64,000 nucleotides of DNA, taken from positions 64,001 to 128,000 of the forward strand of contig CAWKFG010000004.1 of the NCBI GenBank assembly GCA_963848965.1, written 5' to 3'. The notes under the pieces are model-generated. The model saw only the letters and a list, made by a program, of their open reading frames with translations, was not told the DNA's origin and did not search any database. Each line of letters begins with the position of its first letter. Positions within the stretch are counted from its first letter, which is position 1. The stretch comes from an uncultured bacterium (lineage in GTDB: Bacteria > Babelota > Babeliae > Babelales > Babelaceae). The translations under genes and the position numbers were made by a program. This document shows positions 18,978 through 35,784 of the stretch, piece after piece.

Positions 18978-19082
18978 TTATCTATTAAACCAAGCTCCGG
19001 GCCTATTAGTCTCATAATATGCTACCCAAGGGCCACCTAGGGTCAACTTACTAGCATTGCCAAGCATACGGATAGTTTTCAT
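18978..19082 (-). CDS. Lasso peptide precursor A1 (34 aa)
   Basis: Hand translation MKTIRMLGNASKLTL|GGPWVAYYETNRPGAWFNR; AAGGAG RBS; Thr-2, Gly1, Glu9. Confidence 0.9.
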   Translation of the reverse strand: MKTIRMLGNASKLTLGGPWVAYYETNRPGAWFNR

Positions 19083-19115
19083 CGTGTATCTCCTTTTAAG
19101 GTATGTTAAATTTTC

Positions 19116-19144
19116 CTTGAGGAATACCACATGCATTCCTCAAG
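19116..19144. other. Stem-loop between precursors A2 and A1
   Basis: CTTGAGGAAT-9 nt-ATTCCTCAAG, perfect 10-bp stem with no clear U-tract. Confidence 0.6.
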
Positions 19145-19304
19145 AATTAATAAACCTATTTTTCACGGGAAAGGATAAGCCATCCCAATCTTACTTCACC
19201 AGCAACCTTCGCCTACATCAAGGGGCTGTCTTCCTTCGTCTATCGGCAGCAGGCGAGCATTGCACCTGACATAACCATCTTTAGAAATCTAGTTAGTTTA
19301 CCTT

Positions 19305-19436
19305 CTAATGCCCACACCAATGAGGCCTTAGTCCAAGCTCATTTCTGTTACCATTGCAATACCCTAGAGTAAGTAATGATGCTTTCCCAATCTCAACGGC
19401 TCTACTTTCTTTTTTGTTTAGTTTTATCTTATGCAT
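19305..19436 (-). CDS. Lasso peptide precursor A2 (43 aa, two Cys in core)
   Basis: MHKIKLNKKESRAVEIGKASLLTL|GYCNGNRNELGLRPHWCGH; AAGGA RBS; Thr-2, Gly1, Glu9. Confidence 0.9.
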   Translation of the reverse strand: MHKIKLNKKESRAVEIGKASLLTLGYCNGNRNELGLRPHWCGH

Positions 19437-19454
19437 TGCAGTTCCTTTCATTAA

Positions 19455-20383
19455 GAGCCTATCTCTAAAATGGAAAAAAGGTTGAAAATATAATAAAATC
19501 TCCTTCTAAAGAATCGCGATCAACGATCAAGAAGGAGATTTACACATGTGTCATACAAAAAATTGTTATGAAGTATGCATAAACAAGAAGTTTCTTATAA
19601 CTCCAAATTTATGGAAAGATATAGAAAAAATAATACCAAAAATAAGCGAAAAATCAAAGCGGGGAAGACCCTCAATGGATATGAAAAGAGCAATAAATGG
19701 TATCTATTATCTGTTAAGGACAGGTATACAATGGAATGCATTGCCTAGATGCTTTGGATCGTACTCTGCTGTCCATAAACTGTTTCAAAAATTAAGGTCT
19801 GTCGAGTTCTTTAAATATTTATGGTATGCTGAACTTGACCAATATGATAAAATTCACGGACTTAGTCTAGAAACTCAAGCTGCTGATTGTGTTTATATTA
19901 AAGCGCCCTTGGGTTCAGAGAAAACAGGCAAGAGCCCAGTAGATAGGAGAAAATTAGGAACAAAACGAAGCATATTAACTGATAAAAACGGTATAGTTAT
20001 CGGTTGTGCGTTAGGTAGCGCTAATCAGCACGATTCTCAGCTATTTTTGGATACCTTATTATCCATTCCTAAGCATATATCCATGCCTTATAGCAAAATT
20101 ATAAGTTTAGATGCAGCTTATGATTCAGCGCAAATAAGAGCCTACTTGCTGCATTACAGCTATGTACCTAAAATAATGAAAAATAAAAGAAAAGCTAAAA
20201 ATAAAGTTTATGGTGTACCAGAAGGTTATCAACGCTGGTTCATTGAACCTACGCATTCATGGCTCAATCGGTTTAGGCGCTTGTTTGTTCGTTATGAAAA
20301 ATACGCTTTAAACTATATGGCTATGGTTTATTTTGCCGTAGCTATCATTATTTTTAACAAATTATGAATTTACGGATAGGCTC
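19455..20383 (+). mobile_element. IS5-family element (IS1031-like), 929 bp
   Basis: Imperfect TIRs GAGCCTATCTCTAAA / TTTACGGATAGGCTC; 3-bp TAA duplication at 19452-19454 and 20384-20386. Confidence 0.9.
19546..20367 (+). CDS. IS5-family DDE transposase
   Basis: RGRP...GIYYLLRTGIQWNALP, AADC, GTKRSILTD, LDAAYDS, RWFIEPTHSWLNRFRRLFVRYEK. Confidence 0.95.
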   Translation: MCHTKNCYEVCINKKFLITPNLWKDIEKIIPKISEKSKRGRPSMDMKRAINGIYYLLRTGIQWNALPRCFGSYSAVHKLFQKLRSVEFFKYLWYAELDQYDKIHGLSLETQAADCVYIKAPLGSEKTGKSPVDRRKLGTKRSILTDKNGIVIGCALGSANQHDSQLFLDTLLSIPKHISMPYSKIISLDAAYDSAQIRAYLLHYSYVPKIMKNKRKAKNKVYGVPEGYQRWFIEPTHSWLNRFRRLFVRYEKYALNYMAMVYFAVAIIIFNKL

Positions 20384-20495
20384 TAAAGTATAATTAAACT
20401 TTATCATAAGAGTTTCTCTAATTAGCATTAAAGAATACATCAAACAATAGACTAAGTATTTTTAAAAGTAGTGGTTAAAGCTTTTGTAAGTAATC

Positions 20496-20657
20496 TCACA
20501 TCCATTTATTTACTTTTACCGGTAGCTCTAAACCATTAAAGCCTCTACCCATAGTAAGATTTACCGCTGAACCAATCTGCATAACAGAAGTTTGTAGGAA
20601 AAAAATCTTCTTATTATTAGCCTTATCTTTAATTACAGTACTATTTGTATAATGCAT
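20496..20657 (-). CDS. Lasso peptide precursor A3 (53 aa)
   Basis: MHYTNSTVIKDKANNKKIFFLQTSVMQIGSAVNLTM|GRGFNGLELPVKVNKWM; AAGGA RBS; Thr-2, Gly1, Glu8. Confidence 0.88.
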   Translation of the reverse strand: MHYTNSTVIKDKANNKKIFFLQTSVMQIGSAVNLTMGRGFNGLELPVKVNKWM

Positions 20658-21128
20658 TTTTTCCTTCGATAGTAATTATAAATTGTGATCCTAAAAATAT
20701 ACGCAATAAAAATACTAACAAGATAAACCTTATTGTCAAATAGGCATCAAAATAGCGATTGTTACACTCTCTTAAAAAAGAACTAAAACAACAAAAAGCA
20801 TATGCTCTATTTAGAATTTTTTTATTATTATAATTTATTACTGCAACTAATAACTTTGGTATAATTTTCGATAGTAAACTATACATTTATCCTTACTCTA
20901 TCTCTAAAATAGCTTTATAAAAGCTGTTATAGTTGCGATAACAGCAAAAAGTCCTGTTATCATGAAGCTTAATATACTGAACACTGTTAATAATTATGTA
21001 TATGCCACTAGCATCTTACGTAGATATTTGACTTTTTAGAGCTATAAATCATACTGGAAAAAGTAATTTCTATACTCTGCAAAAATATTATAATGACAGG
21101 CTTCATTACTAAATCGAAAGGTATAATT

Positions 21129-21293
21129 GTGATTACTCCTCAAAATTACAAGCAAAAAAGTGCTCGCGTAAATACAGTGGCTATCAAAGAATTGGGTAGT
21201 GCTTGTTTTCTTACTCTTGGTTGGCAAACTAAGAATGCTAAAGAATACATGCGATCATCTTCTTATTTGAAAAACTCCAAGAGTAAGCTTTGA
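21129..21293 (+). CDS. Lasso peptide precursor A4 (GTG start; tail probably chimeric)
   Basis: (M)ITPQNYKQKSARVNTVAIKELGSACFLTL|GWQTKNAKEYMRSSSYLKNSKSKL; AAGG upstream of GTG; Glu9; lies within track ORF 21093..21293. Confidence 0.75.
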   Translation: MITPQNYKQKSARVNTVAIKELGSACFLTLGWQTKNAKEYMRSSSYLKNSKSKL

Positions 21294-21358
21294 GACAAGA
21301 CCTATTTAACAACTATTTTTTTGCTAGTTTTCTTAATAGCATTAAAAATTTTTTGCAT
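21255..21358 (-). pseudogene. Frameshifted, truncated lasso precursor (paralog of A6)
   Basis: MQKIFNAIKKTSKKIVVK[fs]IGLVSKLTL|GVF... compared with A6 MQKAFNTIKKTSEKIALREIGLASKLTR|GVF. Confidence 0.8.
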
Positions 21359-21465
21359 ACTATATTCCTTTAAATTAAATAGCACTGTAGAGATAAACTT
21401 TATGAATTTTAAACAAATAATATTTGTCGAATGTCAAGCGAGTAGTTTTTTATGAAATACGTTTA

Positions 21466-21588
21466 AGTAAAATGCAGCAATTCTTACTATTATACTATGT
21501 AAATTAATTATATATCTGAGATGAAATATTCTTAAAGCATAATACACTTAACTTGACATTTAAAAAACTTAAAGCATACTAGAAAAAA
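21466..21588. repeat. 123-bp direct repeat, copy 1, with sigma70-like promoter
   Basis: Matches 28517..28639 with one mismatch by eye; contains TTGACA-16 nt-CATACT. Confidence 0.9.
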
Positions 21589-21716
21589 GAAAACTTGACA
21601 TCTTGTAAGATCACACAAAAAACAGCATTTTTTAATCTTGATGATAAGCTATATGCTGAAGCAGAATAGCATATACGCATAAGAAGAGCTGTAATTTTTA
21701 ATTGAAAAGTATCTGT

Positions 21717-21883
21717 ATGTTTATAAGACAAAATATTCAATAGAAAGATTGTATCAAAGTAAATACCGTTAAGATAACCAGAGCAATAGTTAAGGAGCCC
21801 GGCAATAGCTCAGCCCTTACGCTTGGAATACTAAAAATGCTAAAGAATATATGAGAACTTCGTGTATTTGGGTGAAAAGCTAA
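21717..21883 (+). pseudogene. Lasso precursor pseudogene (paralog of A4)
   Basis: MFIRQNIQ*KDCIKVNTVKITRAIVKEPGNSSALTL|G[fs]TKNAKEYMRTSCIWVKS*. Confidence 0.8.
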
Positions 21884-21990: not shown

Positions 21991-24900
21991 ATGAAAAATG
22001 TATGTTCTTTTGTTTTAACCGTATGTCTTTTGTCTTTTCAACTGAGTAAGCCAATGGAAAAGGAGACAGCCAGAGAACAAGATATACAAGAAGACAAAGA
22101 AAACATTATATATTTAGAAAGCATTGAAGGAGAACTTGTTCCTTTATCGAGCTCATATCTTCCTCCTGCTTTTGCTTTCACAGTATCTGCTTATCCAGCC
22201 TCTCTAGTTCCTATAAAACAACCATTAGATACTTTAACTTTAGCATGTGATATCCTGCAAGCAAAAAATAAAGATATCTCTCGCCTTATCAATGATTATA
22301 TTGCAGGAGGTTACCTAGAAAGATTCAAACCTGCTCCTTTAAAGAAACCAATTAGAGATGTATTACAAAAGGTTCGTACACTCATAGAAACTCTTCAATT
22401 TCTAAAAATAAGCCAAGAATGCTTGGCCCGTACCTTAAAATACTGCCTACATAATGAACATGTACAGAAAGCTATAACGAGTAAGCTCTTTGTTTATTTA
22501 GAAAGCAAAGAAGGTACCTTGGTTTCTTTTCCGCTTCAATTTCTTCCTCCAGATTTCACTCGAAGATTACCTCAGATAAACCTCGATTTTATAGACAATG
22601 ATATCGTCATCGATTGTAATGACTACCCTACTCGCACTTTAGAGCTTGCACGCGAAATTTTGATACACTACATAGGACTTATCTCTACTACTTACAAAGA
22701 AGCTCATCAACAAGCACTATTAAACAAAGTTGAAGACTATTTGAAGACAGACTCTTCTAATGGAATCATACAAAAAGCGCAAAATCTTTTGAAATTAGTA
22801 AGGTTTCTTAGAGTAAGCCAAGACTGCTTTAACGCTCTTTTACAAAAATGTGCAGCAATAATTAAATGCGATCAAAAAGAACTTTTTTATTCTTGCGATG
22901 CTTTTCATAAAGAGATAGCAGAAGAGAATCTCAAGTCGTGTATACGACCATTAGAAGAGCAAAGCAGCTGGCATCCTTTATCCCTTCACTCTCCTCAAAA
23001 ACAGAGTCTCTCCTTTTCAGTAAAGAAGCTTGAAGATCTACTTTATATAGCTCCTCAGAAAAGAAGAGAACTTGCATTTACTATAGCACTAAAGTATGAA
23101 GATAGAAATATTCATTTGCCTGTTCAGCACCTTATTGATCACAAATCATGGCAAGCTTTAGATGTACTCTGTGGACCTAAATCAAATCCTGAATCATATT
23201 TTGCACATGCTATTGACCGTACATCAACAGAAATAGGAAAAGCGCTCTTTTATTCAAAGCTTCTACAGCCTCTTGATGCTATCCAAGAGCTCAAGAAAAG
23301 GCAATCCATTGTTCAAGAGCTTGCTGGCAACAAAGAGATCTTTGATAAGCTTGATGGGTTATTCAAAGATTTCTTTAGTGAGCTTAAAGGCAAAAATGAA
23401 CAAATGGAAGCAAAAAAATATGAGAATAATATATTAGCCTTCTTTACAGAAAACGATCCCTTTAAAGAATTACTCAAGCTTGATATCACCAATCTCAAGG
23501 GAGCCGCAAAATGGATAAACTCTAACGAGCTCATGGTAACGCTAAAAAGAGGTAAAGATATTATTCCAGATATCATTATCAATATAACAACAAAACAGAT
23601 AAAAAATATTATTCCACAACAGATTAAACAGCTCTTTGACGCGTTTATGCCTGCACTTGCTTCTGAGGCAGGCTCCTGGGCAGCTTCTCAAGCTTGGAAC
23701 TCATTATCTACAAAATTTTTTCCTGACCCTGCTCATCTATCACCACGCTTACTCCAATGGGCGGCTTCTGCTGTAAGCAAAGTACCAAAGGCACATATAC
23801 AGCAAACCATGATGCTTCTTGTTGCAAAGTTTATCTGCTCATTAACATGCTCTAGCGACGAAGATGATTTTGTTAAAGGAATGGTAGAGATGAACTTCTG
23901 TCTTCAGACAAGGCTTATATTACTTGCAAAATATATTACTCTCATGAAAAATGTCTATAATATAGTAAGCACATCACCTAAACTTAAAGAGTATCTACCG
24001 TTTCTAGAAGCCCTCGATCTTGGGCAGGAGCATCATCAAGATATTCTCGCTCATCTCTGGTATTGGTGTAATGAGCTTACTCATCCTGCATCGTTTGAAC
24101 AGTTTATCAATAAGCTCTGTACTGCTACTTTTGATGAAAAAGATGACTCTTGGGCAAAATATCATTTCGGTCGAATAATAGCAACGTATTGCCTTGTTGA
24201 AGTTCATAAAGAACGGCTTTTTGAGGCAGTTATGGCACTATCTGAGCTTGATTCATATCTTTCAGTTGCACGATTGTATAATGAATCGCAGGATAAACCA
24301 AATAAGTATAGCTTTGTCAATTATGATACGTCAGAAACACCCATTATTGATCTTAAAAACTTTTGGAATCCTTGTGTTGGATATAATGCAGTAGCTAATA
24401 CCCTAACTATGGGTACTGATAACCATCCAAAAGACATTATCATTACAGGCCCAAACACGGGTGGCAAATCAACACTCATGAGAGCTCTTATCTTCACCAT
24501 TCTTATGGCACAATCAGTAGGAATAGCTCCTGCTCAACCAGGTTCACATATTACGCTATTTTCAAATATACGAGCGTATCTTAACATCACTGATGATGCT
24601 TCACAAGATGCGTCCTTATTCAAAGCAAGTGCTCAACGAGCCCGAGAGCTTTTAGATGCTGCATTAAAAACAAGAGGACTTTCTCTTACACTCTTTGATG
24701 AAATATATAATGGAACTGATCCTAAGTTAGGTGAATCATTAGCATATGCTACTCTTAAATTTCTTAACGATAGCGCTCGCTTTTCTCACAACATGTGTAT
24801 AACTACAACTCACTTTCCCTGTGTTCAAAAGCTACGCAGAGAGCATACAGGAACTGCATTAGGTACTAATTTTGGATATTTTAGAGTATTTGATATAGAA

Positions 24901-25497
24901 GATCCTAACACCCTCTTTAAAATTAAACCTGGTATTTGTACTAAATCAAATGCTTTTAAAGTAGCAGAGGATAGCTTCAAACTGAGTGAAGATAATAACT
25001 TATACTCAAAGATTCTTGAAGATGCAAAAGAATATTATGGACAGAATTTTGAAGAACAAAAGGGCATACTTGCAGATCCTCATTACTTGGATTTATTGAG
25101 AAGGTCTCCTACTGCATTACTTGAAATGATCCAATTAATAAAAAGCAGCCCTAATCGATGTAAAGAATACCAAGATCTCCTTTTAAGAATGGCGTACCTT
25201 GATAGTTTTATAGCACTTATTGAGCATAAGAAAAATATCTTAGCAGAGAATAATATCACTCTTGCTACATTACTTAACCTTACTAATTCTCAAGGTAGAA
25301 CAGTTCTTCATAACGGAGCACTTGATCTTATTGAAGATGAAGCTCTTATAACAAAACTCATAAACTATGGAGCAAATCCACAAGTGACAGATAACTATGG
25401 AAGAAAACCATTACACTATACTCAAAAGAATACCCTTATAGAAGAGCTGCTCAATCGCTATGAAAGACCGGCCCGCTCAAAGTCAATAAAATTATAA
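21991..25497 (+). CDS. Secreted MutS-domain-V ATPase protein with C-terminal ankyrin repeat
   Basis: Signal peptide; IIITGPNTGGKST, LFDEIYNGT, ITTTHF; GRTVLHNG/GANPQVTDNYGRKPLHY; no mismatch-binding GDFYE motif. Confidence 0.85.
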   Translation: MKNVCSFVLTVCLLSFQLSKPMEKETAREQDIQEDKENIIYLESIEGELVPLSSSYLPPAFAFTVSAYPASLVPIKQPLDTLTLACDILQAKNKDISRLINDYIAGGYLERFKPAPLKKPIRDVLQKVRTLIETLQFLKISQECLARTLKYCLHNEHVQKAITSKLFVYLESKEGTLVSFPLQFLPPDFTRRLPQINLDFIDNDIVIDCNDYPTRTLELAREILIHYIGLISTTYKEAHQQALLNKVEDYLKTDSSNGIIQKAQNLLKLVRFLRVSQDCFNALLQKCAAIIKCDQKELFYSCDAFHKEIAEENLKSCIRPLEEQSSWHPLSLHSPQKQSLSFSVKKLEDLLYIAPQKRRELAFTIALKYEDRNIHLPVQHLIDHKSWQALDVLCGPKSNPESYFAHAIDRTSTEIGKALFYSKLLQPLDAIQELKKRQSIVQELAGNKEIFDKLDGLFKDFFSELKGKNEQMEAKKYENNILAFFTENDPFKELLKLDITNLKGAAKWINSNELMVTLKRGKDIIPDIIINITTKQIKNIIPQQIKQLFDAFMPALASEAGSWAASQAWNSLSTKFFPDPAHLSPRLLQWAASAVSKVPKAHIQQTMMLLVAKFICSLTCSSDEDDFVKGMVEMNFCLQTRLILLAKYITLMKNVYNIVSTSPKLKEYLPFLEALDLGQEHHQDILAHLWYWCNELTHPASFEQFINKLCTATFDEKDDSWAKYHFGRIIATYCLVEVHKERLFEAVMALSELDSYLSVARLYNESQDKPNKYSFVNYDTSETPIIDLKNFWNPCVGYNAVANTLTMGTDNHPKDIIITGPNTGGKSTLMRALIFTILMAQSVGIAPAQPGSHITLFSNIRAYLNITDDASQDASLFKASAQRARELLDAALKTRGLSLTLFDEIYNGTDPKLGESLAYATLKFLNDSARFSHNMCITTTHFPCVQKLRREHTGTALGTNFGYFRVFDIEDPNTLFKIKPGICTKSNAFKVAEDSFKLSEDNNLYSKILEDAKEYYGQNFEEQKGILADPHYLDLLRRSPTALLEMIQLIKSSPNRCKEYQDLLLRMAYLDSFIALIEHKKNILAENNITLATLLNLTNSQGRTVLHNGALDLIEDEALITKLINYGANPQVTDNYGRKPLHYTQKNTLIEELLNRYERPARSKSIKL

Positions 25498-25530: not shown

Positions 25531-26880
25531 ATGAATCATCTGTTAAAGAAGAGAAGCAAACAAGCGTTATTTTTTGTGAGCCTCTCTTTTACCTCTTTAT
25601 CATTACTGGGTATGCAAAAAGCGCCTTCACCACATGATAGAGCTAGCAATATAGAAGAAGGATCTAAAAGCAACCGAAGGAGAGCTCTCCTTTTAGGATT
25701 AAAACAGTCAAGTGTATCATCAAGTGATGGCCAAACCATTATTCTTGAGCCCTATTTACTTTCGCCGGAAGCCCTAGAGTATATTACCGACAACCGAGAG
25801 CAATTTGATGGTGAATTAAGTACTAACGTATGGAAACTTATTTTTTGGCTCTACCGTACTAGTAACGATATTGATAGCAGTTCTCCTGTTACTTTTAATG
25901 ATGACCCCTTCATTGAATACAAGGTTAAAAATCAAGATGTATTAAAGCTGATAGGGAGGCTACCACTTCTTTACCTCAAAGATTCAGTTTTAGAGACATT
26001 CATAAAAGCTTATGTTGCTTTTAGTAAGGGAACCATAGATGCCAAAGCTCTCTTACATTATCATGATACTCTTTATACTAGTGAGCCCAGCTCTCGACAA
26101 AGAGATCTTTATCAAAAGCTGTGCCTAACCTTGCTTGATAAGTGTTACTATTTACGCTATAAAAAGCATCTTCCTTTTGCTCAAGAGCTTTTAGGAACTG
26201 TATCAATTCAAGAATTATTAGAGCATGGGAGAATTACGTTTCCTCAAGCATCGTTTCATCAACTTAGAAGTACTCTCCACAATGAGGAAGGCAGCTCATT
26301 TTTACCAGAAAACCCAACACTCAAGCTTCGAGATAGTTCCTTGTCAAGTCTTAATGGATGGCAAACTATTTTGAACAATATACAAGCAGATAGTATCTAT
26401 GCAATTGATTTAAGTAATAACTGCTTACAAACGCTTGACCCTCTTTCTGAGCTTACAAACTTTAAAGCGCTTACCGTACTTAGGTTAGATCATAATAAAT
26501 TAAAAACTCTCCCCTTAGAATTACTTAAAGATTGTACCGCTCTTATGGTACTTGATCTTTCGCATAACCCATTAAATGAATTTTCTCCAGAAGACCTTGC
26601 TGTACTTATAGCTCCATGTTCACATCTTCAAGAGCTCTCTATTGCTCATACAGATATGAAGGGAAAGCTTACTGCAGAGCACTTTGCGCGTAACCCTTCT
26701 TTAAAAAAAATAGATTACAAGAATTGTTCACAGTTGTGTGTTTCAGAATCTGTAGATAAACTAAATGCTATGCGTGAGGAATTTACTTTAGATAACAGAT
26801 TTGTCGTTATAGGCGGCTTTTTAGCTTTTATAGTAATAGCTATTCTTGTAGGAAAACATATTATGCATCGTTCTGCATAA
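25531..26880 (+). CDS. Leucine-rich repeat protein with signal peptide and C-terminal TM helix
   Basis: IDLSNNCL, LRLDHNKL, LDLSHNPL, LSIAHTDM repeats. Confidence 0.88.
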   Translation: MNHLLKKRSKQALFFVSLSFTSLSLLGMQKAPSPHDRASNIEEGSKSNRRRALLLGLKQSSVSSSDGQTIILEPYLLSPEALEYITDNREQFDGELSTNVWKLIFWLYRTSNDIDSSSPVTFNDDPFIEYKVKNQDVLKLIGRLPLLYLKDSVLETFIKAYVAFSKGTIDAKALLHYHDTLYTSEPSSRQRDLYQKLCLTLLDKCYYLRYKKHLPFAQELLGTVSIQELLEHGRITFPQASFHQLRSTLHNEEGSSFLPENPTLKLRDSSLSSLNGWQTILNNIQADSIYAIDLSNNCLQTLDPLSELTNFKALTVLRLDHNKLKTLPLELLKDCTALMVLDLSHNPLNEFSPEDLAVLIAPCSHLQELSIAHTDMKGKLTAEHFARNPSLKKIDYKNCSQLCVSESVDKLNAMREEFTLDNRFVVIGGFLAFIVIAILVGKHIMHRSA

Positions 26881-27049
26881 GTGATATATACGTAAAGGAC
26901 CCCAAGTGTAAATAAGCACTTGTATATGAATTTAAGATTAAAGCTTAGTTACTATACCTTACATCTTTCTCTTATACATATGGCAATTGCTTATATCTAC
27001 AAGCAACAAAATGCCGTTATCTTAACTTATTAATAGAAAGGAATAAAAC

Positions 27050-27799: not shown

Positions 27800-27824
27800 A
27801 ACCCCAGCTTTATCGGCTGGGGTT
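27800..27824. terminator. Terminator hairpin downstream of precursor A5
   Basis: AACCCCAGC-7 nt-GCTGGGGTT with an A-run on the left (U-tract on the minus strand). Confidence 0.75.
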
Positions 27825-27844: not shown

Positions 27845-27994
27845 TTATTTTTTAATTGGCCACTTATTACCTTTAACAGGTAATTCTAAACCATTTCCTT
27901 TAATACCCATAGTAAGAGTCACTGCTGAGCCAACTGAAACAACTGCGCTCTGTAGTTTTGAAGCTATTTTATTATGTGTTTTTTTATGTAACAT
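27845..27994 (-). CDS. Lasso peptide precursor A5 (49 aa)
   Basis: MLHKKTHNKIASKLQSAVVSVGSAVTLTM|GIKGNGLELPVKGNKWPIKK; AAGGA RBS; Glu8. Confidence 0.9.
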   Translation of the reverse strand: MLHKKTHNKIASKLQSAVVSVGSAVTLTMGIKGNGLELPVKGNKWPIKK

Positions 27995-28041: not shown

Positions 28042-28192
28042 TTATCTTTCTGAACGGTTTGTCATCCAACCTGGTCTTATAAGCTCAGATCGCTTTGAAG
28101 TAATGGCCTACGCGGTAGCTATGTATAATAGCCTATTTTGCAGACTAAATGTTTTTTCCTAGCTACTTTATTTAAATTACAAATTTTTTCAT
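28042..28192 (-). pseudogene. Lasso precursor pseudogene
   Basis: Broken leader ...HLVCKIGYYT*LPR, then a frameshifted core remnant AITSKRSELIRPGWMTNRSER similar to A6 NKKSELFRPTW. Confidence 0.7.
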
Positions 28193-28197: not shown

Positions 28198-28335
28198 TTA
28201 TTCTACCCATGTTGGTCTAAAGAGCTCAGATTTTTTATTTGAGAAAACTCCGCGAGTAAGCTTTGATGCAAGACCTATCTCACGAAGAGCTATTTTTTCG
28301 CTAGTTTTCTTAATAGTATTAAAAGCTTTTTGCAT
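28198..28335 (-). CDS. Lasso peptide precursor A6 (45 aa)
   Basis: MQKAFNTIKKTSEKIALREIGLASKLTR|GVFSNKKSELFRPTWVE; Thr-2, Gly1, Glu9. Confidence 0.88.
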   Translation of the reverse strand: MQKAFNTIKKTSEKIALREIGLASKLTRGVFSNKKSELFRPTWVE

Positions 28336-28516
28336 GATATATTTCTCTAAATTAGATAAATTAAAAACAATTTACAATCAAATAATAACAAGCTTAAAAA
28401 ATAAATCAAGTGGTGCTGTAAAGATAAATTTATGGATATTAAATGACTAATAATTTTAAATAAATAGTATTTGTCGGATGTATAGCGACTGTCTTTTTAT
28501 GTAAACAAAGAGTTCT

Positions 28517-28639
28517 AGTAAAATGCAGCAGTTCTTACTATTATACTATGTAAATTAATTATATATCTGAGATGAAATATTCTTAAAGCATAATACACTT
28601 AACTTGACATTTAAAAAACTTAAAGCATACTAGAAAAAA
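28517..28639. repeat. 123-bp direct repeat, copy 2; likely promoter of lasso B-C
   Basis: Near-identical to 21466..21588; TTGACA-16-CATACT lies about 50 nt upstream of the B gene start. Confidence 0.9.
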
Positions 28640-28679
28640 AGAAACTTAAATAAATTGTAAGATTACACAGGACAATGTT

Positions 28680-29429
28680 ATGTTTTTTCGCTTACAATCC
28701 CCTATTTATGCAACACACTGTGATAGCGGAATTATTATTTTAGATTTAAAGCAAGATAAATACTTTAGCCTTACTGATGAGGCTGTTCACTTTCTTACTG
28801 AAATATTAAAAAGAGAATTTGTTCTTAAAGACGCTCATTATATCCCTTGTGATGAAACAGTGCCTGATGAAGAACATATATTTGATTCTTGGATACACTA
28901 TTTTTTAGAAGAAGGATTTATTGAGCCTAGCAATCAGAAAGATGTCTCTAAGCCATTAAGGACAGCCTTAGTATCAGGCGGTCTTGCAGATTACCAATGG
29001 GATACTAAAGATAAACTTTCCTCTTTTTCTCAGTCACCTAAGCTTTTAGTAATGCAATTATTTTTCCTCGTAATGCGCGTAGATTTTATTTTAAAACGCA
29101 AGGGAATACAAGGAATCTTAGATAAAATAAATGTATATAAACGCAAGCATAAGGTATACAAAGAACCAACTCAAAGTGATATAGAAGCGCTTTCTGCTGC
29201 ACTTGATGTCGCTTGCTCTCTGTACCCAAAAAAAATGTATTGCCTTGCATGGGCATCATCATTTGTCTTAATAGCTCTTAAAAAAGGGCTAAAGTGTAAT
29301 CTTGTTATTGGCGTACAATCACCTCCCTTTTATGCTCACGCATGGGCTCAAGTAGGAGAAACGGTTATTAATGATGCAACCATAGTAAAAGAACGTCTTT
29401 CAATCCTCTTAAAGGAACCATTTAGTTAA
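28680..29429 (+). CDS. Lasso peptide B protein (fused RRE/PqqD-like + transglutaminase-like leader peptidase)
   Basis: N-terminal GIIILDLKQDKYFSL; C-terminal CLAWAS...LVIGVQSPPFYAHAW...VIND with a Cys-His-Asp triad. Confidence 0.93.
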   Translation: MFFRLQSPIYATHCDSGIIILDLKQDKYFSLTDEAVHFLTEILKREFVLKDAHYIPCDETVPDEEHIFDSWIHYFLEEGFIEPSNQKDVSKPLRTALVSGGLADYQWDTKDKLSSFSQSPKLLVMQLFFLVMRVDFILKRKGIQGILDKINVYKRKHKVYKEPTQSDIEALSAALDVACSLYPKKMYCLAWASSFVLIALKKGLKCNLVIGVQSPPFYAHAWAQVGETVINDATIVKERLSILLKEPFS

Positions 29430-29438: not shown

Positions 29439-31241
29439 ATGCCTCTTATTGCCGGTGCTCTTTTAAAGCATCCTTCTACGCACCTTACTGATAAACTTAT
29501 ACATTACACAAAAAAAATACTTACAGAAGAATCGTATACTATTAATCAGCAGCCCTATGCACTCATTATAGGTGGAAAAAGAGCAGAAGAATCATCTTTA
29601 GAACAGGTTCAAGTACTTCCTCATAATGAGGGAATTATGGTTGGCAGACTCTTTGATAAAGTTACTTACAAGCCCTGCTATGCGCAAGGAGCAAGCTCTA
29701 TCGTGCATACAAAAGGAAAGTCTTTGAGCGACCGCTATTGGGGACGGTATATTCTTGCTCTTTTAGATACCTCTCATAGATCTATTACTCTTTTTAGAGA
29801 TCCACAAGGCCTTTCATCGCTCTTTATTATTGAGATACCCGAAGGAATTTTTTTTGCGTCTGAGATTTCAGTTCTGTATGATATCCTTGAGATAAAGCCA
29901 GAACTTGATTGGACCTATTTAACTTCATATGTTTCTGGTGCCCACAATATTACTTATAGAACACCTTTTCATGGCATTACAGAGCTCTTTCCAGGATATG
30001 GAGTAACCCTTTCACCTAAGGGAATCGAAACTCCATTTCTTTTTTGGGATCCTACTGAGCTTTCGTCTCAATGTAAAACTGAACAAGAATATGAAGATAA
30101 GCTCATTGCAACATTTTCTTCTTGTACACAAGCTTGGACACAAGGAGTTTCAGGTATAGGAGTTGAATTTTCCGGAGGTATTGATTCTTCATCAGTGCTT
30201 ATGATGCTCAAAAAAGTGGCATTACCAGAGCAGCGTATTGTTGGATTTAATTTTTTCCATCCTGCCGTTGCTTCATCTGATGAGCGGGAACATGCAAAGA
30301 AAGTTGCTACTGCTTGCCAAGTAGATGTTGATTATATAAATTTACAAGATTATGCATATTTAAACTTTCAAACGGTTGAAAGATTTGATAAGCCCTCCTC
30401 TTTCTTGCTCGATCTGGGATGGAATAAAGAAATGGCGCGGAGAATACAAAGCTATGGAGATCTTGAAATCATGTGTGGCCAAGGAGGCGACCATCTTTTT
30501 ATGGCACCACCTCCAGTAGAATCAATTGCCGATTATCTAATTTTACAAGGCTTTAGGGGCATCACTCCTAAAATTAAAGATATAAGCGCTTACTATCGTA
30601 TGCCATTGCTTAGTGTTTTATCAAAAAATCTTTCTTCATTTGTTCACTATAAGCGAGGAAACCTTAAGCATATAGAATTGCTCTATGAACCAACCAATTG
30701 GATGAATCAGTCATTTAAAGAAAAACTTAATAAAGACATATTCCAAGTTCCTTTTTGGCATAAGCTTAAGAATCTTCCTCCTGCTAAAGTGCAGCATATC
30801 TTTGCTCTGTATCAAGCAACTCTCTATATAGATAGAGGGCACAGAATAGCACATAAGCCAGTTATTAACCCACTTCTCTCTCAACCTCTTGTTGAGCTCG
30901 CTCTTGCAGTACCTACCTATCAACTATATGGAAATGGTTATGATAGAGTACAGTTTAGAAAAGCAATGTACCAATTTACAAAACACGATTACATATGGCG
31001 TAAAACTAAAGGCGAAACGAGCGGCATACTTATGATTGCCTTTAACCGTCAAATTAAAGAAATCACTGAATATCTCTTAGAAGGTAAGTTTGCTCAAGAA
31101 AAATTGGTAGATAAAAATCTTCTTTACAATCATATCCAAGATATAAGGCATGGAAAAAACGATAACATATGGGCTATTATTAACCTTCTTGCTGCAGAGC
31201 TTTGGCTTCATTCATGGGATACTACAACGCGTAAAGAGTAA
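29439..31241 (+). CDS. Lasso cyclase (asparagine-synthetase-like macrolactam synthetase)
   Basis: FRDPQG, SGGIDSS ATP loop, GQGGDHLF, PLLSQPLVELALAVP, WRKTKG; no N-terminal Cys; directly follows B. Confidence 0.93.
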   Translation: MPLIAGALLKHPSTHLTDKLIHYTKKILTEESYTINQQPYALIIGGKRAEESSLEQVQVLPHNEGIMVGRLFDKVTYKPCYAQGASSIVHTKGKSLSDRYWGRYILALLDTSHRSITLFRDPQGLSSLFIIEIPEGIFFASEISVLYDILEIKPELDWTYLTSYVSGAHNITYRTPFHGITELFPGYGVTLSPKGIETPFLFWDPTELSSQCKTEQEYEDKLIATFSSCTQAWTQGVSGIGVEFSGGIDSSSVLMMLKKVALPEQRIVGFNFFHPAVASSDEREHAKKVATACQVDVDYINLQDYAYLNFQTVERFDKPSSFLLDLGWNKEMARRIQSYGDLEIMCGQGGDHLFMAPPPVESIADYLILQGFRGITPKIKDISAYYRMPLLSVLSKNLSSFVHYKRGNLKHIELLYEPTNWMNQSFKEKLNKDIFQVPFWHKLKNLPPAKVQHIFALYQATLYIDRGHRIAHKPVINPLLSQPLVELALAVPTYQLYGNGYDRVQFRKAMYQFTKHDYIWRKTKGETSGILMIAFNRQIKEITEYLLEGKFAQEKLVDKNLLYNHIQDIRHGKNDNIWAIINLLAAELWLHSWDTTTRKE

Positions 31242-31334
31242 TATACCCTAAGAAAGATCTTATAACATAAGAGAGAGTTATTTTAGAAGACTACTAGCCG
31301 AGTACCGAGTCTCAATAAATACTTACTTAAATAG

Positions 31335-34300
31335 ATGTGGGAGAAAATGAAAATTATATATACACTTATCTTACTTTTAGGTACTGCTTTATTCAAAACA
31401 GTTGCACCAATGGAAGATATTCAAAGAGTACATACTCCTCACACGAAAAGTTTTGTATATCTCATAAGCGCAGAAAACGATACAATTGTTTTACGCTCTC
31501 AGCTCCTCTCTCCAGAAGCTTTACAAAAAAAGGATTCTTCTAATACTATCGACTGTAGATCATACCCTACAGAAGTAATAGAGCTAGCATGCAAAATTCT
31601 TGAATCGAAAGACCAAGACACCTCTCAGCTTATCAATAACTACCTTGTAGCAGGATACTTAAAAAAATTAAAACAAAGTATCTTAAAACAGCCAACAATA
31701 AACCTTCTACAAAAGGTTCATAATCTTTTAGATATCTTACGATCCTTAAAAGCAAGTCAAAAATGTTTGAAAACTACTTTACGATTTTGCTTGAATAACG
31801 AGTATGTTCAAAAGGCTATAACAAACAAACCTTTTGTATACTTAGAAAGTACTGAAGGAAAACTACTGCCTCTTCCTTTTCAATTCCTTCCTCAAGATTT
31901 CATTCAAAGACTTTGGCATTCAAACCTAGATTTTATTGATAATGATATCATTATCGATTGCAGCGCCTACTCGTTGCATAATCTAGAGCTTGCATGCGAG
32001 ATATTAGTTTATCAAACAAGCCCACACTCTCTTAAGAAAGTTGAAGAATATCTCAAGGGAAATACGATTGGAGAGTCACTACAAAAAGCTCGTGATCTTT
32101 TAAAAGTTATAAGGTTTTTTGGAATAAGCAAAGATACTTTTGATGTTCTCTTACAAGCATGCGCGAAGACAACTAACTGTGAACCTAATGAGCTTTTTTA
32201 CTCCCGAGAAGATCTTTATAAAGAGGCTACAGAGGAAAATTTAAAGTCATTATCCTTAAGCTCTTCTCCTCAAGCTACAGAAGAAAACAGCACTTGGATA
32301 CGTAATGAGCTTAATACTCAGCTCAATCTTTCACCACTTGCTCGGCGCAAGATAGCCTTTACTATGGCATTACAGCACGAAAATCAAGATCCTACAACAA
32401 GCCTTTCTTATATTATTGATCAAAAGTCATGGCAAGATCTAGAACTACTGTGCGGACCAAAGTCAAATCCACATTTCTGCTTTGCCAGCGCCGTTGATCG
32501 TACATCAACAGAGATAGGCAAAGCACTCTTGTATACTAGGCTTTTACAACCGCTTACTACTATTCAAGAGCTTAAAAAAAGACAATCTATTGTTCAAGAA
32601 CTACTTAAGCCATCGATATTTCAAGAACTGGATGCCCTTTTTGCACAGTTTTTTAAAGAGCCAAAACATGAAAATAATGTTCTATCTTTTCTCAACGGTG
32701 CTGACTTTTTCAAAAATGAATTAAGCTATAATGAAATACAAATTCCTTTCTTTGCTAAATTCTCTCAGTGGTTTAATACCAATGAGATTACAGGCTTTTG
32801 GAGCGCTTCTGATAAACTTATTTATAAAATTAGTAATACACTCCTACAGGGGAAGACAAAAACATATGAATTTTGCCTCAATGGTTTAGAGTATTTCTCG
32901 ATAATCAAAAATAATAGGCCTCGTATAGATGAAACTATAGAATTCATTAAGTGTTGCTTTAAGTTCTTTATACCCAAGCTCGTTAACGCAACTTCTGAGA
33001 AGTCCTCTAAGCAGGCCTCTGATATGGTTTCTAAATATATAGTAAATGAAAAAATATCCTTAGGGATACCATTTACTAAGTACAAGCTACCTCAAGAGCC
33101 TTCATTCACATCTCCTATTTTTGGTGCTACACTCGGCTGGGCTTATAGCTCTTTTTTAGGAGCGCCGCACATGCTCACGGAAAGCATAATAACAACCTCA
33201 GTAATGCACGTTGTAACACACTTGCTCTATAGTGCGATGAGTGATAATAATTACAGTAGAGCAATTCAAGGATTAGCAGAGGCAAGCATATGCCTCCAGG
33301 AAAAGCTTATACTACTTTCAAAATATGTTAAATTTATCAAAGAGCTTCATACTTTTCTGAAAAATAAGTCACCAAAGCTTTTAGAGCTTATTCCTTCTTT
33401 ACAAGCTTTAGATCTAGGACAAGAAACTCCTCGTCAAAATGTATTCTCTTATTTCTGGCATTTTCCTACAGATATTACCAAGCAGTACATCTTTACAGAC
33501 GCAACGTCTTTCGAGCAGTTCATAAGTAAGCTCTGTAGTGCAACTTTTGATGAGCAAGGTAATATTTTTTCAAGGTATCATATTGGTCGTGTTATCGCAG
33601 TTTATCGCCTTGTAGATCTTCATAAAGAAAGACTTTCTGCCACTGCCACAGCACTTGCAGAACTTGACGCATATCTTTCAGTTGCACGATTGTATAATGA
33701 ATCGCAAGATAAACCAAATAAATATAGCTTTGTTAATTATGATACGTCAGAAACACCTGTTATTGATCTTAAAAACTTTTGGAATCCTTGTGTTGGATAT
33801 GATGCAGTAGCTAATACCTTAACTATGGGTATTGATAATCATCCAAAAGACCTTATAATTACAGGGCCAAATACCGGTGGTAAATCAACACTTATGAGGG
33901 CTCTTGTTTCTGCTATTTTAATGGGCCAATCATTAGGCATAGTTCCTGCACAAGAAGGATCACACATAACATTATTCTCAAATATACGCGCATATCTTAA
34001 TATAACTGATGATTCGTCGCTAGGTCTTTCTTTATTCTGGGCAAGTGCTAGGCGAGCTAAAGAGCTTTTAGAGGCAGCACAAAGACCAACAGGCCATTCA
34101 CTTACACTTTTTGATGAGATATATAATGGAACTGCTCCGAAAATAGGCGAATCTTTAGCCTATGGCACCCTTCTATTTATGACCGATAGCAATCATTGTC
34201 CTCGAAATATATGTATAACTACGACTCACTATCCTTTTGTACAACAATTACGAGAAGAGATAGATACCAAATGTGCTTATTATAGAATAAGCGATAAAGA

Positions 34301-34916
34301 AGATTCTGAAAATCGCTATAAACTTTTACCAGGTATTTATACAGAGTCCAACGGCCTTACTATTGCTCAAGAAGTAGGACTTAACGATGAAATTAGTAGA
34401 AACTCAAAACACTACTGTGAGCAAAAATACAAAAATAGTAATCTTAATTGCTTATTTAAGCCAGAAGCTCTCTTAAATACCTGTAAGGAAGAAGGGTTCA
34501 TATTCCTTATGAAACTTATAAAACAGAGCGAAATGAGAGCTTGGCTTCACGAGTTACTTTTAACAGCACCTTATGGCTATCATTTAGTAGAGCTAGCAAT
34601 AAAGCATGCAGTTAATCTCAAGTCATTCCTCAATCTTACAGATGATAAAGGCAGAACAGTACTTCATCGCGCAGCTATAAGAGATGCTAAAAACGGTGCA
34701 CTTATAAGCTTTCTTATCAAACAGGGAGCAAGCCTATGGATGTACGATGCTAAAGGCAAAAGGCCGCGAGACTACGCTTTACCGGACACTGTTGTCTGGA
34801 AGATATTAGTAGATGCAGAAAATACTCAAGGAACATATTTTGAGCAGCTACCTCAAGCATTAAGAGATAGACTCCAGAACTACATTACATATAATAAGAG
34901 AGCTGACGCTTTGTAA
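31335..34916 (+). CDS. Secreted MutS-domain-V ATPase/ankyrin protein, paralog of 21991..25497 (start possibly 31347)
   Basis: Signal peptide MKIIYTLILLLG; GPNTGGKST, LFDEIYNGT, TTHY; GRTVLHRAA ankyrin. Confidence 0.85.
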   Translation: MWEKMKIIYTLILLLGTALFKTVAPMEDIQRVHTPHTKSFVYLISAENDTIVLRSQLLSPEALQKKDSSNTIDCRSYPTEVIELACKILESKDQDTSQLINNYLVAGYLKKLKQSILKQPTINLLQKVHNLLDILRSLKASQKCLKTTLRFCLNNEYVQKAITNKPFVYLESTEGKLLPLPFQFLPQDFIQRLWHSNLDFIDNDIIIDCSAYSLHNLELACEILVYQTSPHSLKKVEEYLKGNTIGESLQKARDLLKVIRFFGISKDTFDVLLQACAKTTNCEPNELFYSREDLYKEATEENLKSLSLSSSPQATEENSTWIRNELNTQLNLSPLARRKIAFTMALQHENQDPTTSLSYIIDQKSWQDLELLCGPKSNPHFCFASAVDRTSTEIGKALLYTRLLQPLTTIQELKKRQSIVQELLKPSIFQELDALFAQFFKEPKHENNVLSFLNGADFFKNELSYNEIQIPFFAKFSQWFNTNEITGFWSASDKLIYKISNTLLQGKTKTYEFCLNGLEYFSIIKNNRPRIDETIEFIKCCFKFFIPKLVNATSEKSSKQASDMVSKYIVNEKISLGIPFTKYKLPQEPSFTSPIFGATLGWAYSSFLGAPHMLTESIITTSVMHVVTHLLYSAMSDNNYSRAIQGLAEASICLQEKLILLSKYVKFIKELHTFLKNKSPKLLELIPSLQALDLGQETPRQNVFSYFWHFPTDITKQYIFTDATSFEQFISKLCSATFDEQGNIFSRYHIGRVIAVYRLVDLHKERLSATATALAELDAYLSVARLYNESQDKPNKYSFVNYDTSETPVIDLKNFWNPCVGYDAVANTLTMGIDNHPKDLIITGPNTGGKSTLMRALVSAILMGQSLGIVPAQEGSHITLFSNIRAYLNITDDSSLGLSLFWASARRAKELLEAAQRPTGHSLTLFDEIYNGTAPKIGESLAYGTLLFMTDSNHCPRNICITTTHYPFVQQLREEIDTKCAYYRISDKEDSENRYKLLPGIYTESNGLTIAQEVGLNDEISRNSKHYCEQKYKNSNLNCLFKPEALLNTCKEEGFIFLMKLIKQSEMRAWLHELLLTAPYGYHLVELAIKHAVNLKSFLNLTDDKGRTVLHRAAIRDAKNGALISFLIKQGASLWMYDAKGKRPRDYALPDTVVWKILVDAENTQGTYFEQLPQALRDRLQNYITYNKRADAL

Positions 34917-35119
34917 TTGGTAGAAGAAATAATTTTTCTAGATACAACGATATCTTTCTGTTGGGACTTAGGAATCACGAGCTGAAGGAGATTAGCTTAC
35001 TCATATCTAGTCAACCTTCAGCTTGTTAAGTATTAAGCTTCTATTAGCTATCTAGCGCCTTTTACTAAAATAATTAACGTCTTTATTCAAGCCGATTTAA
35101 GCCTATAAATTATGCTCTA

Positions 35120-35281
35120 TCACTTCTTAATTGGCGGTATTTCATCATTTCGTGGTTTAGCACCTGATTCCATACGGAATCCAAGGGGCCAACCCAGAGT
35201 TAATAAAGAAGCATAACCTAACTCTTTTAATTGTGCTTTTTTGCTTACCGTATTTTCATTGTTGTACGTTGAAGGTGACAT
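35120..35281 (-). CDS. Lasso peptide precursor A7 (53 aa)
   Basis: MSPSTYNNENTVSKKAQLKELGYASLLTL|GWPLGFRMESGAKPRNDEIPPIKK; GGAG RBS; Glu9. Confidence 0.9.
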   Translation of the reverse strand: MSPSTYNNENTVSKKAQLKELGYASLLTLGWPLGFRMESGAKPRNDEIPPIKK

Positions 35282-35515
35282 GATATCTCCGTTATTGATT
35301 AAAGTAAAAATTCACTTTTTAATTCTTCCTCATCATTGTAAATCTATCATAAAGGCTTGTCAAAAAGACCCTTTGCCTTTAAAAATCTTGCTACCTAGTA
35401 ATTGCCTTATTTCATTAAAAACAGCAAATTTCTTTCTGGGATTATCCCCTAATTAAATTAGAGACAGCTGTTTATAATAGATCAACGAATAACAAGCTAA
35501 CACTGAGGGTAGCAG

Positions 35516-35543
35516 TTGACTTGGTTACATATTCCGCTAAAAT
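35516..35543 (+). promoter_or_regulatory. sigma70-like promoter upstream of A8
   Basis: TTGACT-16 nt-TAAAAT. Confidence 0.45.
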
Positions 35544-35649
35544 GTTACTATATAAATTATTGTTTTTAAATACCTCTAACTTTGGATAAAAATAAATTTT
35601 ATAAAATTTCAGATGTTAAGAATTTAATCTTTTAACTCATGGAGATACT

Positions 35650-35784
35650 ATGTTCATTACAAAAAACCATAACAACAAAAAAGCGAATGTTAAAGCGATT
35701 GGTAATGCTTCTTTAATTACCCTTGGTACTCGCGGTCACAGTGTTGAAATGGCTAAACCTATAAACTATGGTGTCAAAAGATAG
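35650..35784 (+). CDS. Lasso peptide precursor A8 (44 aa)
   Basis: MFITKNHNNKKANVKAIGNASLITL|GTRGHSVEMAKPINYGVKR; GGAG RBS; Glu8. Confidence 0.9.
   Translation: MFITKNHNNKKANVKAIGNASLITLGTRGHSVEMAKPINYGVKR

Follow-up and report, generated by a model that had tools for sequence, protein, structure and literature searches.

The window and its lasso-peptide genes

The window, that is, the whole 64-kb stretch of DNA that was analysed (positions 64001-128000 of contig C4 of genome G000), contains a putative lasso-peptide system in which one pair of enzyme genes, B and C, is accompanied on both strands by short open reading frames (ORFs) for precursor peptides. G000 is a metagenome-assembled genome (MAG) of 1.73 Mb in 5 contigs with 37% G+C, and it is estimated to be 88.7% complete and 1.2% contaminated. 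An earlier note made from the letters alone, here called the sequence-only reading, had reported eight open and four decayed precursor genes. All eight open ORFs were found at the claimed coordinates with the cores exactly as claimed, and the four decayed copies were also confirmed. The features are listed below in window coordinates. The cores and rings are predictions.

18978-19136, minus strand: precursor 1; leader ...MKTIRMLGNASKLTL, core GGPWVAYYE-TNRPGAWFNR, ring of 9 and tail of 10 residues
19305-19451, minus strand: precursor 2; core GYCNGNRNE-LGLRPHWCGH, ring of 9
20496-20657, minus strand: precursor 3; core GRGFNGLE-LPVKVNKWM, ring of 8; paralog of precursor 5 (repeat D8)
21093-21293, plus strand: precursor 4; core GWQTKNAKE-YMRSSSYLKNSKSKL, ring of 9; the weakest of the eight
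21258-21358, minus strand: decayed copy a; frameshifted and stopped paralog of precursor 6 (repeats D4 and D5, 85%)
21783-21880, plus strand: decayed copy b; paralog of precursor 4 (repeat D6) with a frameshift at the leader/core junction
27047-27115, plus strand: decayed copy d; leader-like KKLGAASGLNPRY (LGAASGLNPRY), Thr-2 and Gly1 lost; nhmmer E 0.12
27800-27824, minus strand: terminator-like hairpin of 9 bp, 6 of them GC, with a T-rich tail, 21 nt past the stop of precursor 5
27845-27994, minus strand: precursor 5; core GIKGNGLE-LPVKGNKWPIKK, ring of 8
28045-28107, minus strand: decayed copy c; core remnant AITSKRSELIRPGWMTNRSER (...SKRSELIRPGW...) with a stop where the leader should be
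28198-28335, minus strand: precursor 6; core GVFSNKKSE-LFRPTWVE, ring of 9
28680-29429, plus strand: B; putative leader-binding domain (RiPP recognition element, RRE, or B1-like; residues ~3-78) fused to a B2 cysteine protease
29439-31241, plus strand: C; putative Asn-synthetase-like, ATP-dependent macrolactam (lasso) cyclase, starting 9 nt after B
35120-35281, minus strand: precursor 7; core GWPLGFRME-SGAKPRNDEIPPIKK, ring of 9
35650-35784, plus strand: precursor 8; core GTRGHSVE-MAKPINYGVKR, ring of 8

Most of the precursor genes had been described as having clear ribosome-binding sites (RBSs), and purine runs (GGAG, AAGGA, GAGG) do lie 5-12 nt before the ATG in seven of the eight. For example, the likely start of precursor 1 is the ATG at 19082, which has AAGGAG ahead of it and would give a leader of 15 aa. 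Precursor 4 has no RBS before its ATG; only a weak AAAGG is present, and it precedes a GTG. At its 3' end the gene runs into decayed copy a, which is encoded on the opposite strand. Precursor 6 and B are divergently oriented with a spacer of 344 nt. Of the promoter-like sites in this region, the best (TTGACA-17-TACAAT, 35363-35335) is 54 nt upstream of precursor 7; this is an anecdote of a single site. In precursor 2, a disulfide between ring and tail is possible through the two Cys residues (positions 3 and 17). Among the decayed genes, copy a reads MQKIFNAIKKTSKKIVVK and then IGLVSKLTLGVFQIRR in a different frame, and in copy b the leader (..GNSSALTLG) and the core (WNTKNAKEYMRT..) are in different frames. 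Scans of the 64-kb window with Rfam and for tRNAs gave no match.

Enzymes B and C

B scored 66 bits against the NCBIfam model lasso_biosyn_B2 (NF033537, cut-off 33) and matched Pfam Transglut_core3 with an E value of 5.6e-17. All 16 aligned homologs share its catalytic residues, Cys188, His220 and Asp232. A profile of the N-terminal region gave a marginal match (E 0.02, residues 3-78) to TfuB1 (6jx3), a solved lasso RRE protein, and B also matched NF033530 (lasso PqqD) marginally, with an E value of 0.011. Because of the match to the B2 model, the invariant triad and the matches to TfuB1 and NF033530, B was taken to be a fused B1-B2 protein.

C matched Pfam Asn_synthase (E 3.1e-20), and its PP-loop motif SGGxDS (S245-G-G-x-D-S250) is invariant in all 32 aligned homologs. 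Its top NCBIfam matches are lasso cyclases, namely NF033535 (lass_lactam_cya, 90.4 bits) and NF033561 (the albusnodin/ikarugamycin type, 85.8 bits). Since both scores fall below the cut-offs, C belongs to neither subfamily. A profile search of the PDB with C returned AsnB, CarA and PP-loop enzymes only, and single-sequence PDB searches with B and C gave no meaningful match, the lone match of B being at chance level (E 0.97). C aligns over ~540 residues (E 1e-30 to 1e-45) with homologs from loci of Sphingomonas, Caulobacter, Asticcacaulis, Rubrivivax and Roseateles. In addition, the leader profile detected lasso-type precursors beside C homologs in L035 and L036 (Phenylobacterium), L057 (Paucibacter) and L072 (Roseateles). 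The identification of B and C as lasso-type enzymes, which the sequence-only reading had tied to hits against hidden Markov models (HMMs) of these families, is thus supported by the sequence comparisons. B exceeds the B2 cut-off, and the best models for C are lasso cyclases with scores under their cut-offs.

Leader motif and core variability

The leader motif was searched in six-frame translations in a strict form, [ILVM]G.[AS]..[LIV]T.G, and as a full pattern, which consists of the strict motif, a Glu at core position 8 or 9 and a stop 7-19 residues later. The strict motif occurs 8 times in the window, compared with a mean of 0.03 and a maximum of 1 in 200 first-order Markov shuffles. The full pattern also occurs 8 times in the window and was found in 0 of the 200 shuffles. 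Genome-wide, the strict motif occurs 13 times, compared with 0, 1, 2, 1 and 2 times in five shuffled genomes. Twelve of these 13 matches are precursor-like, and the remaining one lies in a 147-aa frame (C4 3638-4078). The expectation of the sequence-only reading that shuffled DNA would contain the motif far less often was therefore correct, and these window and genome statistics exclude a chance origin of the motif.

HMM searches of the whole genome, described below, brought the number of intact precursors to 17. The hallmarks of lasso precursors on which the sequence-only reading had relied, Thr-2, Gly1 and Glu8 or Glu9, are present in all 17, with Glu8 in 10, Glu9 in 7 and tails of 7-17 residues. 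Among the first 16, an RBS-like motif before the ATG is clear in 14, weak in precursor 6 and absent in precursor 4. The start region of the 17th is AGAGGAGG, and with it 15 of 17 have an ATG and a clear RBS-like motif. Mean pairwise identity among the first 16 precursors is 43% at leader positions -12 to -1, 17% at -22 to -13, 9.7% at ring positions 2-7 and 11.7% over the first 8 tail residues. A library made by one promiscuous cyclase, as the sequence-only reading proposed, would fit this pattern of a conserved leader and a hypervariable core (43% vs ~10%).

Known precursor families were compared with the eight window precursors through the NCBIfam models J25_fam_lasso and lasso_albusnod. Two of the eight gave matches below threshold (12.8 vs 23 bits and 12.6 vs 30 bits), and the other six had no match. 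The best match to the J25-family model, that of 12.8 bits, had an E value of 0.093.

Host lineage

Judging from its sequences, G000 is a Dependentiae (Babeliales) bacterium. LepA, which is encoded on the contig of the window, is 80-84% identical to entries of Candidatus Dependentiae and Candidatus Babeliaceae, and the nearest relatives of window C and B are in Babeliales MAGs. These results agree with the sequence-only reading, which had suggested a reduced-genome lineage associated with protists. Two reports describe a parasitic lifestyle for the Dependentiae phylum (PMC4776705, PMC6561590). Ankyrin and leucine-rich-repeat (LRR) proteins are abundant throughout the window.

Second locus and orphan precursors

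A leader-HMM scan of the whole genome had been suggested as a check of the system, and the HMM searches found 17 intact precursors at 9 sites on 2 contigs. The statement that there is one B/C pair was correct for the window. It did not hold for the genome, in which tblastn identified two B genes and three C genes. The second locus (C4 792.9-798.1 kb) is 700 kb from the window locus. Its genes lie in the order ABC ATPase, 261-aa membrane protein, B', C', four precursors on the minus strand and C''. B' is 52% identical to window B, and the two further C genes are 46% and 44% identical to window C (tblastn). Of the two exporter genes, the first matches ABC_tran (E 4e-38) and the 261-aa protein weakly matches ABC2_membrane (E 2.9e-4) and has at least 4 hydrophobic windows. 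The remaining five precursors, given here in contig coordinates, are orphans, all of them on the other contig or >320 kb away from window B and C.

C4 417235-417375, minus strand: orphan precursor, no enzyme nearby
C4 421171-421458, plus strand: orphan precursor, no enzyme nearby
C1 407407-407637, plus strand: orphan precursor, no enzyme nearby
C1 432415-432684, plus strand: orphan precursor, core GQWDRSFSE-LARPNAWPEWAKRK, no B or C
C1 448464-448634, minus strand: orphan precursor, no enzyme nearby

The orphan at C1 432 kb lies directly upstream of a pair of ABC_tran and ABC2_membrane genes and forms a precursor-exporter module with them (L083:6415-8735, which equals C1 432415-434735). Genes for a TolC-like outer-membrane efflux protein and a multicopper oxidase (L081:10523-13124, which equals C4 421523-424124) adjoin the orphan at C4 421171-421458.

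The leaders fall into two classes. At position -6, the eight window and five orphan genes have Ala (12) or Ser (1), and all four genes of locus 2 have Val. This division (13 vs 4) suggests that the window B/C pair serves 13 precursors at 8 sites, which is plausible from the leader sequences. A quick maximum-likelihood tree of C was built from 53 rows (32 aligned homologs, C'', 14 C proteins from the loci and 6 outgroups), leaving out the partial matches P0030 and P0033. In this tree, window C clusters with proteins P0001, P0002 and P0004-6 of other genomes, and C', C'' and P0010 form a separate clade with 100% support. The genome thus holds two old enzyme lineages. The C clade is set apart from the proteobacterial outgroups, also with 100% support. 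B and C of the same clade were also observed in MAGs labelled Phycisphaerales and Rickettsiaceae (L013, L015), at basal positions on long branches of the quick tree. Their presence there may be due to horizontal transfer between bacteria that associate with protists, or to mis-binning.

Predicted leader binding and proposed pathway

As a test that bears on maturation in trans, a complex was predicted between window B and an orphan precursor of contig C1, each supplied as a 16-row alignment, and the median of three runs was taken. The complex scored 0.66, and the best of three controls scored 0.01. Of 157 solved complexes, 116 reach the mark that it passed, as do 2 of 215 mismatched pairs; these figures apply approximately because our own alignments were supplied. 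The runs agreed in at least 72% of contacts, with a pLDDT (predicted local distance difference test) of at least 53 for the partner. In the model, leader residues 17-25 lie on residues 19-35 of B, including the invariant I19, L21 and Y28, and Thr28-Leu29-Gly30 are placed against Cys188 and His220. Because RRE-leader complexes have already been solved, passing the mark indicates likeness to them rather than binding by this particular copy.

In the proposed pathway, the leader motif (I/L/V)-x-E-(L/I)-G-x-A-S-x-L-T-x would bind, in the form of a strand, to the RRE at the N-terminus of B, and the Cys188/His220/Asp232 site of B would cleave before Gly1. C would then adenylate Glu8 or Glu9 and close a ring of 8 or 9 residues over the tail. 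The single B/C pair of the window would probably mature ~13 distinct cores in trans, in the manner of the prochlorosins, and locus 2 would probably mature its own four precursors. Export would probably use the ABC-2 transporters of locus 2 and those beside the C1 432-kb orphan. The precursors would have been copied along with neighbouring genes for secreted MutS-like ATPases, and some of the copies would now be decaying.

Comparison across Dependentiae genomes

With presence defined as an E value of at most 1e-60, the cyclase was found in 16 of 261 Dependentiae species genomes (11 of 189 of high quality), which represent 9 families. The most copies, three, are in G000. Precursors were counted across genomes with a broader precursor profile of 51 rows, which gave 17 matches in G000, 10 each in G068 and G193, 8 in G252, 7 in G264, 6 in G009, 5 each in G006 and G116 and 1-4 in each of the other eight cyclase genomes. 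Outside G000, the precursors form tight arrays within ~8 kb of the C gene on the same contig. The exceptions are two matches on contig C5 of G006 and two on C46 of G193, and both of these assemblies are fragmented. Of the 15 nearest loci in other genomes, 12 have the same leader motif ahead of the cores beside B and C. The sequence-only reading had noted that typical clusters carry one to a few precursors. This is true in general, but arrays of 4-10 are common in this Dependentiae clade. Thus, what is special in G000 is the dispersal of the precursors and not their multiplicity. Among the genomes searched, dispersal over hundreds of kb was seen in G000 only.

Two relatives contain fused precursors. 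In L003:2858-4110 (plus strand), leader-core cassettes follow one another in frame, uninterrupted by stops, within three consecutive ORFs: 3 in the ORF of 128 aa, 3 in that of 111 aa and 4 in that of 148 aa, or 10 cores in total. Each unit reads ..ELGxATxLTxG followed by a Gly1...Glu8/9 core, and the internal 'leaders' are ~15 residues long. In L006:11752-12368 (plus strand), ORFs hold 2 and 3 fused cassettes. A literature search, judged by title, returned no relevant report of multi-core lasso precursors, and the fused ORFs of L003 and L006 would be the first of this kind. In L006:8080-11581, a transposase gene (8661-9917) has inserted into the cyclase gene and split it, and five downstream precursor ORFs are still open, which indicates that precursors can outlast their enzyme.

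Duplication and MutS-like neighbours

The other genes in and around the precursor field are listed below in window coordinates, followed by further MutS-like genes of G000 in contig coordinates.

18624-18839, plus strand: TnpB/Cas12f-like remnant of 71 aa at the left edge of the precursor field; Pfam Cas12f1-like_TNB (E 3.6e-20), C-terminal domain only
19546-20367, plus strand: IS4/IS5-family transposase; Pfam DUF4096 and DDE_Tnp_1
21991-25497, plus strand: MutS-like paralog 1, 1168 aa; MutS_III, MutS_V with Walker A, C-terminal ankyrin repeat
25531-26880, plus strand: LRR protein; Pfam LRR_8, signal-like N-terminus, C-terminal hydrophobic helix; effector-like
31335-34916, plus strand: MutS-like paralog 2, 1193 aa; shares 44% identity with paralog 1 and begins 94 nt past C
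C4 417397-420207, C1 404295-407330 and C1 445305-448358: other MutS-like genes of G000

Positions 21221-21596 are repeated at 28244-28647 with 85-96% identity. Because of this repeat, the paralogy of precursors 3 and 5 and of decayed copy a and precursor 6, and the 44% identity of the MutS-like paralogs, the window is considered to hold a tandem duplication of precursors together with a MutS-like gene. B and C are present in just one copy of it. A 136-nt repeat before B (21461-21596 and 28512-28647) was rejected as a mobile or regulatory element, as it has two copies only and is part of the segmental duplication. The insertion sequence (IS) element of the IS4/5 family has 4 copies in the genome with 99-100% identity by blastn (the others are at C2 5633-6591, C1 401490-402434 and C1 120190-121120), which is why it is judged to have been active recently. 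Two copies adjoin precursor sites, and one copy lies 2 kb from the MutS-like/precursor pair at C1 404-407 kb.

The MutS-like family has MutS_III and MutS_V and no mismatch-binding domain, some members carry ankyrin repeats, and G000 has 9 non-canonical copies. Paralog 1 has a signal-peptide-like N-terminus and is without MutS domains I, II and IV. Every MutS-like protein that was examined carries Walker A and begins with a signal-peptide-like segment, and none is membrane-spanning. From these features they look like secreted ATPases and not transporters, and they were ruled out as the missing transporter of the window system for want of membrane-spanning segments. An ESM Atlas look-up of paralog 1 gave no usable match, and Pfam searches with the N-terminal 360 residues of the MutS-like proteins and with the N-terminus of the LRR protein gave nothing above noise. 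A possible Skp1/BTB-like appearance of the 'SSDGQ...' motif was dropped, as no tool match supported it. The alignment of these N-termini was poor. A canonical five-domain MutS is intact in the same window (53004-55658). The MutS-like paralogs are thus additions and not replacements. MutS_V matches occur in 261 of 261 Dependentiae genomes, usually 1-5 per genome, and the 10 in G000 are the maximum, jointly with one other genome.

The MutS-like genes are close to the precursors at many more sites than chance would allow. Six of the nine precursor sites are <1 kb from one of the nine MutS-like genes, and at four of them the distance is no more than 300 nt. Random placement, repeated 20,000 times, put at most 3 sites within 1 kb, a value that was reached 34 times. 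Three orphan precursors share a strand with their MutS-like neighbour, at gaps of 22-140 nt. Locus 2 has no MutS-like gene within 125 kb. In other Babeliales, 8 of 26 non-canonical MutS_V genes lie inside a 20-kb lasso locus, compared with ~0.4 expected, and they come from 5 of 10 genomes. For example, L010 has on one strand a MutS-like gene, a precursor, a second MutS-like gene, four precursors, B and C (MutS-like genes at L010:696-8548), and the stop codon of the second MutS-like gene is followed 7 nt later by the four-precursor array. In half of the lasso loci that were examined, no MutS-like gene lies nearby.

On its left, the precursor field is bordered by two eukaryote-type sulfotransferase genes and a gene for a DXD glycosyltransferase (15767-18322), which has a weak Pfam match to the catalytic glycosyltransferase domain of TcdA/TcdB (E 1.2e-5). 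These proteins could be tailoring enzymes, and they are more likely to be host-directed effectors.

Alternative explanations

We consider it likely that these genes form a genuine lasso-peptide system, one kind of ribosomally made peptide with post-translational modifications (RiPP), of Dependentiae/Babeliales with a strongly expanded and dispersed precursor family. Several points weigh against this. The lasso system is known here from genes alone. C is far under the curated lasso-cyclase cut-offs (90.4 vs 525 and 85.8 vs 300 bits), the RRE matches of B are marginal (E 0.01-0.02), and no exporter (D) gene was found among the proteins of the 64-kb window. Promoter-like sites in the region are not more frequent than in shuffles (73 vs 67.9 +/- 6.5). 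The score of the predicted complex may derive from likeness to solved RRE-leader structures, and the complex does not tell window B from B'. The assignment of the orphans to the window pair is based on one or two leader positions, and as the MAG is 88.7% complete, more enzyme genes could be missing from the assembly. Lastly, with four dead copies in the window and a moribund-looking precursor 4, some of the 'intact' orphans may be unexpressed relics.

The notion that the small ORFs are open by chance, or that they are copies of a non-coding repeat whose translations happen to be alike, has a negligible probability. The ORFs are short (44-66 aa) and lie in AT-rich DNA, and no precursor family model exceeded its threshold (two of eight were weak, with E values of 0.09-0.13). 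Set against this, the full pattern was never produced by the 200 shuffles, the DNA of the copies is mostly unalignable and yet the peptide motif is kept, and other genomes have the motif ahead of the cores beside B and C (12 of the 15 nearest loci). It is more credible, and still improbable, that the dispersed precursors are relics and that production continues only for those adjacent to enzymes (28198, 27845 and the four of locus 2). The four decayed window copies would agree with this, as would precursor 4, which has no RBS and runs into a dead copy, and L006, which keeps five precursor ORFs despite its IS-split C gene. However, all 17 open copies retain Thr-2, Gly1 and Glu8 or Glu9 although the remaining core is ~10% identical, and 15 of the 17 retain an ATG with a clear RBS-like motif. 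The dead copies show frameshifts, stops and loss of Thr or Gly, and the intact ones show none of these. A working system with a dispersed precursor family is the reading preferred here.

This reading leaves room for different accounts of the MutS-like neighbours. The tie may be functional, with the lasso peptides acting with or on the secreted MutS-like ATPases as paired modulators or effector partners, an account that we regard as rather doubtful. It would explain why six of nine sites are within 1 kb of a MutS-like gene, why the gaps are 22-140 nt on the same strand at three orphan sites and paralog 2 begins 94 nt past C, why L010 has its MutS-like genes, precursors, B and C all on one strand, and why 8 of 26 MutS_V genes, in 5 of 10 other Babeliales genomes, are in lasso loci where ~0.4 were expected. 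However, MutS-like paralogs also occur in lasso-free genomes throughout the phylum (MutS_V matches in 261 of 261), and half of the examined lasso loci are without one, as is locus 2 for 125 kb. The counts are also inflated by tandem copies and duplications, and co-amplification in a variable effector island would give the same picture. Such co-amplification is the more likely cause of the linkage. A broader proposal, which we hold to be unlikely, is that the Dependentiae lasso pathway is a platform for peptide diversity inside a eukaryotic host rather than a source of one classical antibacterial microcin, with tandem, fused and scattered units and with peptides that act with or on MutS-like effectors. 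In that proposal, the scattered precursors would have been co-amplified, and probably co-transcribed, with the paralogs of the secreted MutS-like ATPase effectors.

Significance

Lasso peptides are prized as very stable scaffolds, and their enzymes are usually described with one to three adjacent substrates. If the preferred reading of a working, dispersed system is true, G000 would offer a naturally promiscuous B/C pair with a ready-made panel of ~13 unrelated cores, and the prochlorosin principle would be extended to a second RiPP class. A classical antibacterial would be of little obvious use to an obligate intracellular parasite of protists, which raises the question of what lasso peptides do inside a eukaryotic cell. 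The linkage to MutS-like ATPases is a concrete and testable lead on this function. In addition, the fused multi-cassette precursors of L003 and L006 would require a new processing step, the release of the tail end.

The sequence-only reading knew of no characterised lasso system from such a lineage. A literature search likewise found no true co-mention of lasso peptides and this phylum, with the limit that large mining tables could list such clusters; the one paper containing both terms uses them in unrelated contexts. In entries of Candidatus Dependentiae and Babeliales, NCBI automatic annotation already uses the name 'lasso peptide biosynthesis B2 protein', so the presence of lasso enzymes in the phylum is already on the database record. 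Notable here are the number and scatter of the precursor genes, the host lineage and the tie to MutS-like ATPases.

Comparison with known systems

Among characterised systems, the caulosegnin/astexin-type clusters of alphaproteobacteria come closest, and they likewise have a fused B, several precursors and rings of 8 and 9 residues. The leader end LG-x-A-x-x-x-T-x-G of G000 is the same motif that was found beside C homologs in Phenylobacterium and Roseateles loci, and astexin leaders presumably resemble the leader ends found here. Neither an isopeptidase nor a TonB receptor was seen in the window. Where these clusters have 2-3 precursors, G000 has 17, which occupy 9 sites on 2 contigs and lie as far as hundreds of kb from the enzymes. 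Its C clade is separate, and the host is an obligate intracellular parasite of protists. Caulosegnins I-III derive from three precursors in one cluster, are made by one enzyme set and have 8- and 9-residue rings (PMC13352647).

In the microcin J25 system (McjABCD), the precursor has Thr-2 and Gly1 and its ring closes on Glu8; B is fused, C resembles Asn synthetase, and an ABC exporter provides immunity (PMC13352647). Locus 2 of G000 is similar in that it carries a set of A, B, C and transporter genes. However, the window locus has no D gene, and the transporter of locus 2 is a two-gene ABC-2 type and not a half-transporter of the McjD type. A McjD-like gene is present in the relative L003.

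The prochlorosins, made by ProcM in Prochlorococcus and Synechococcus, have many precursors with a conserved leader and hypervariable cores, some of them encoded far from the single enzyme in a small genome. G000 is like them in its conserved leader (43%), its variable core (~10%) and its precursor genes far from the enzymes. It differs in that B and C would form an isopeptide lasso, whereas the prochlorosins have thioether rings formed by a LanM enzyme. Thus, the system of G000 would follow the same logic as the prochlorosins and would not be a member of their family.

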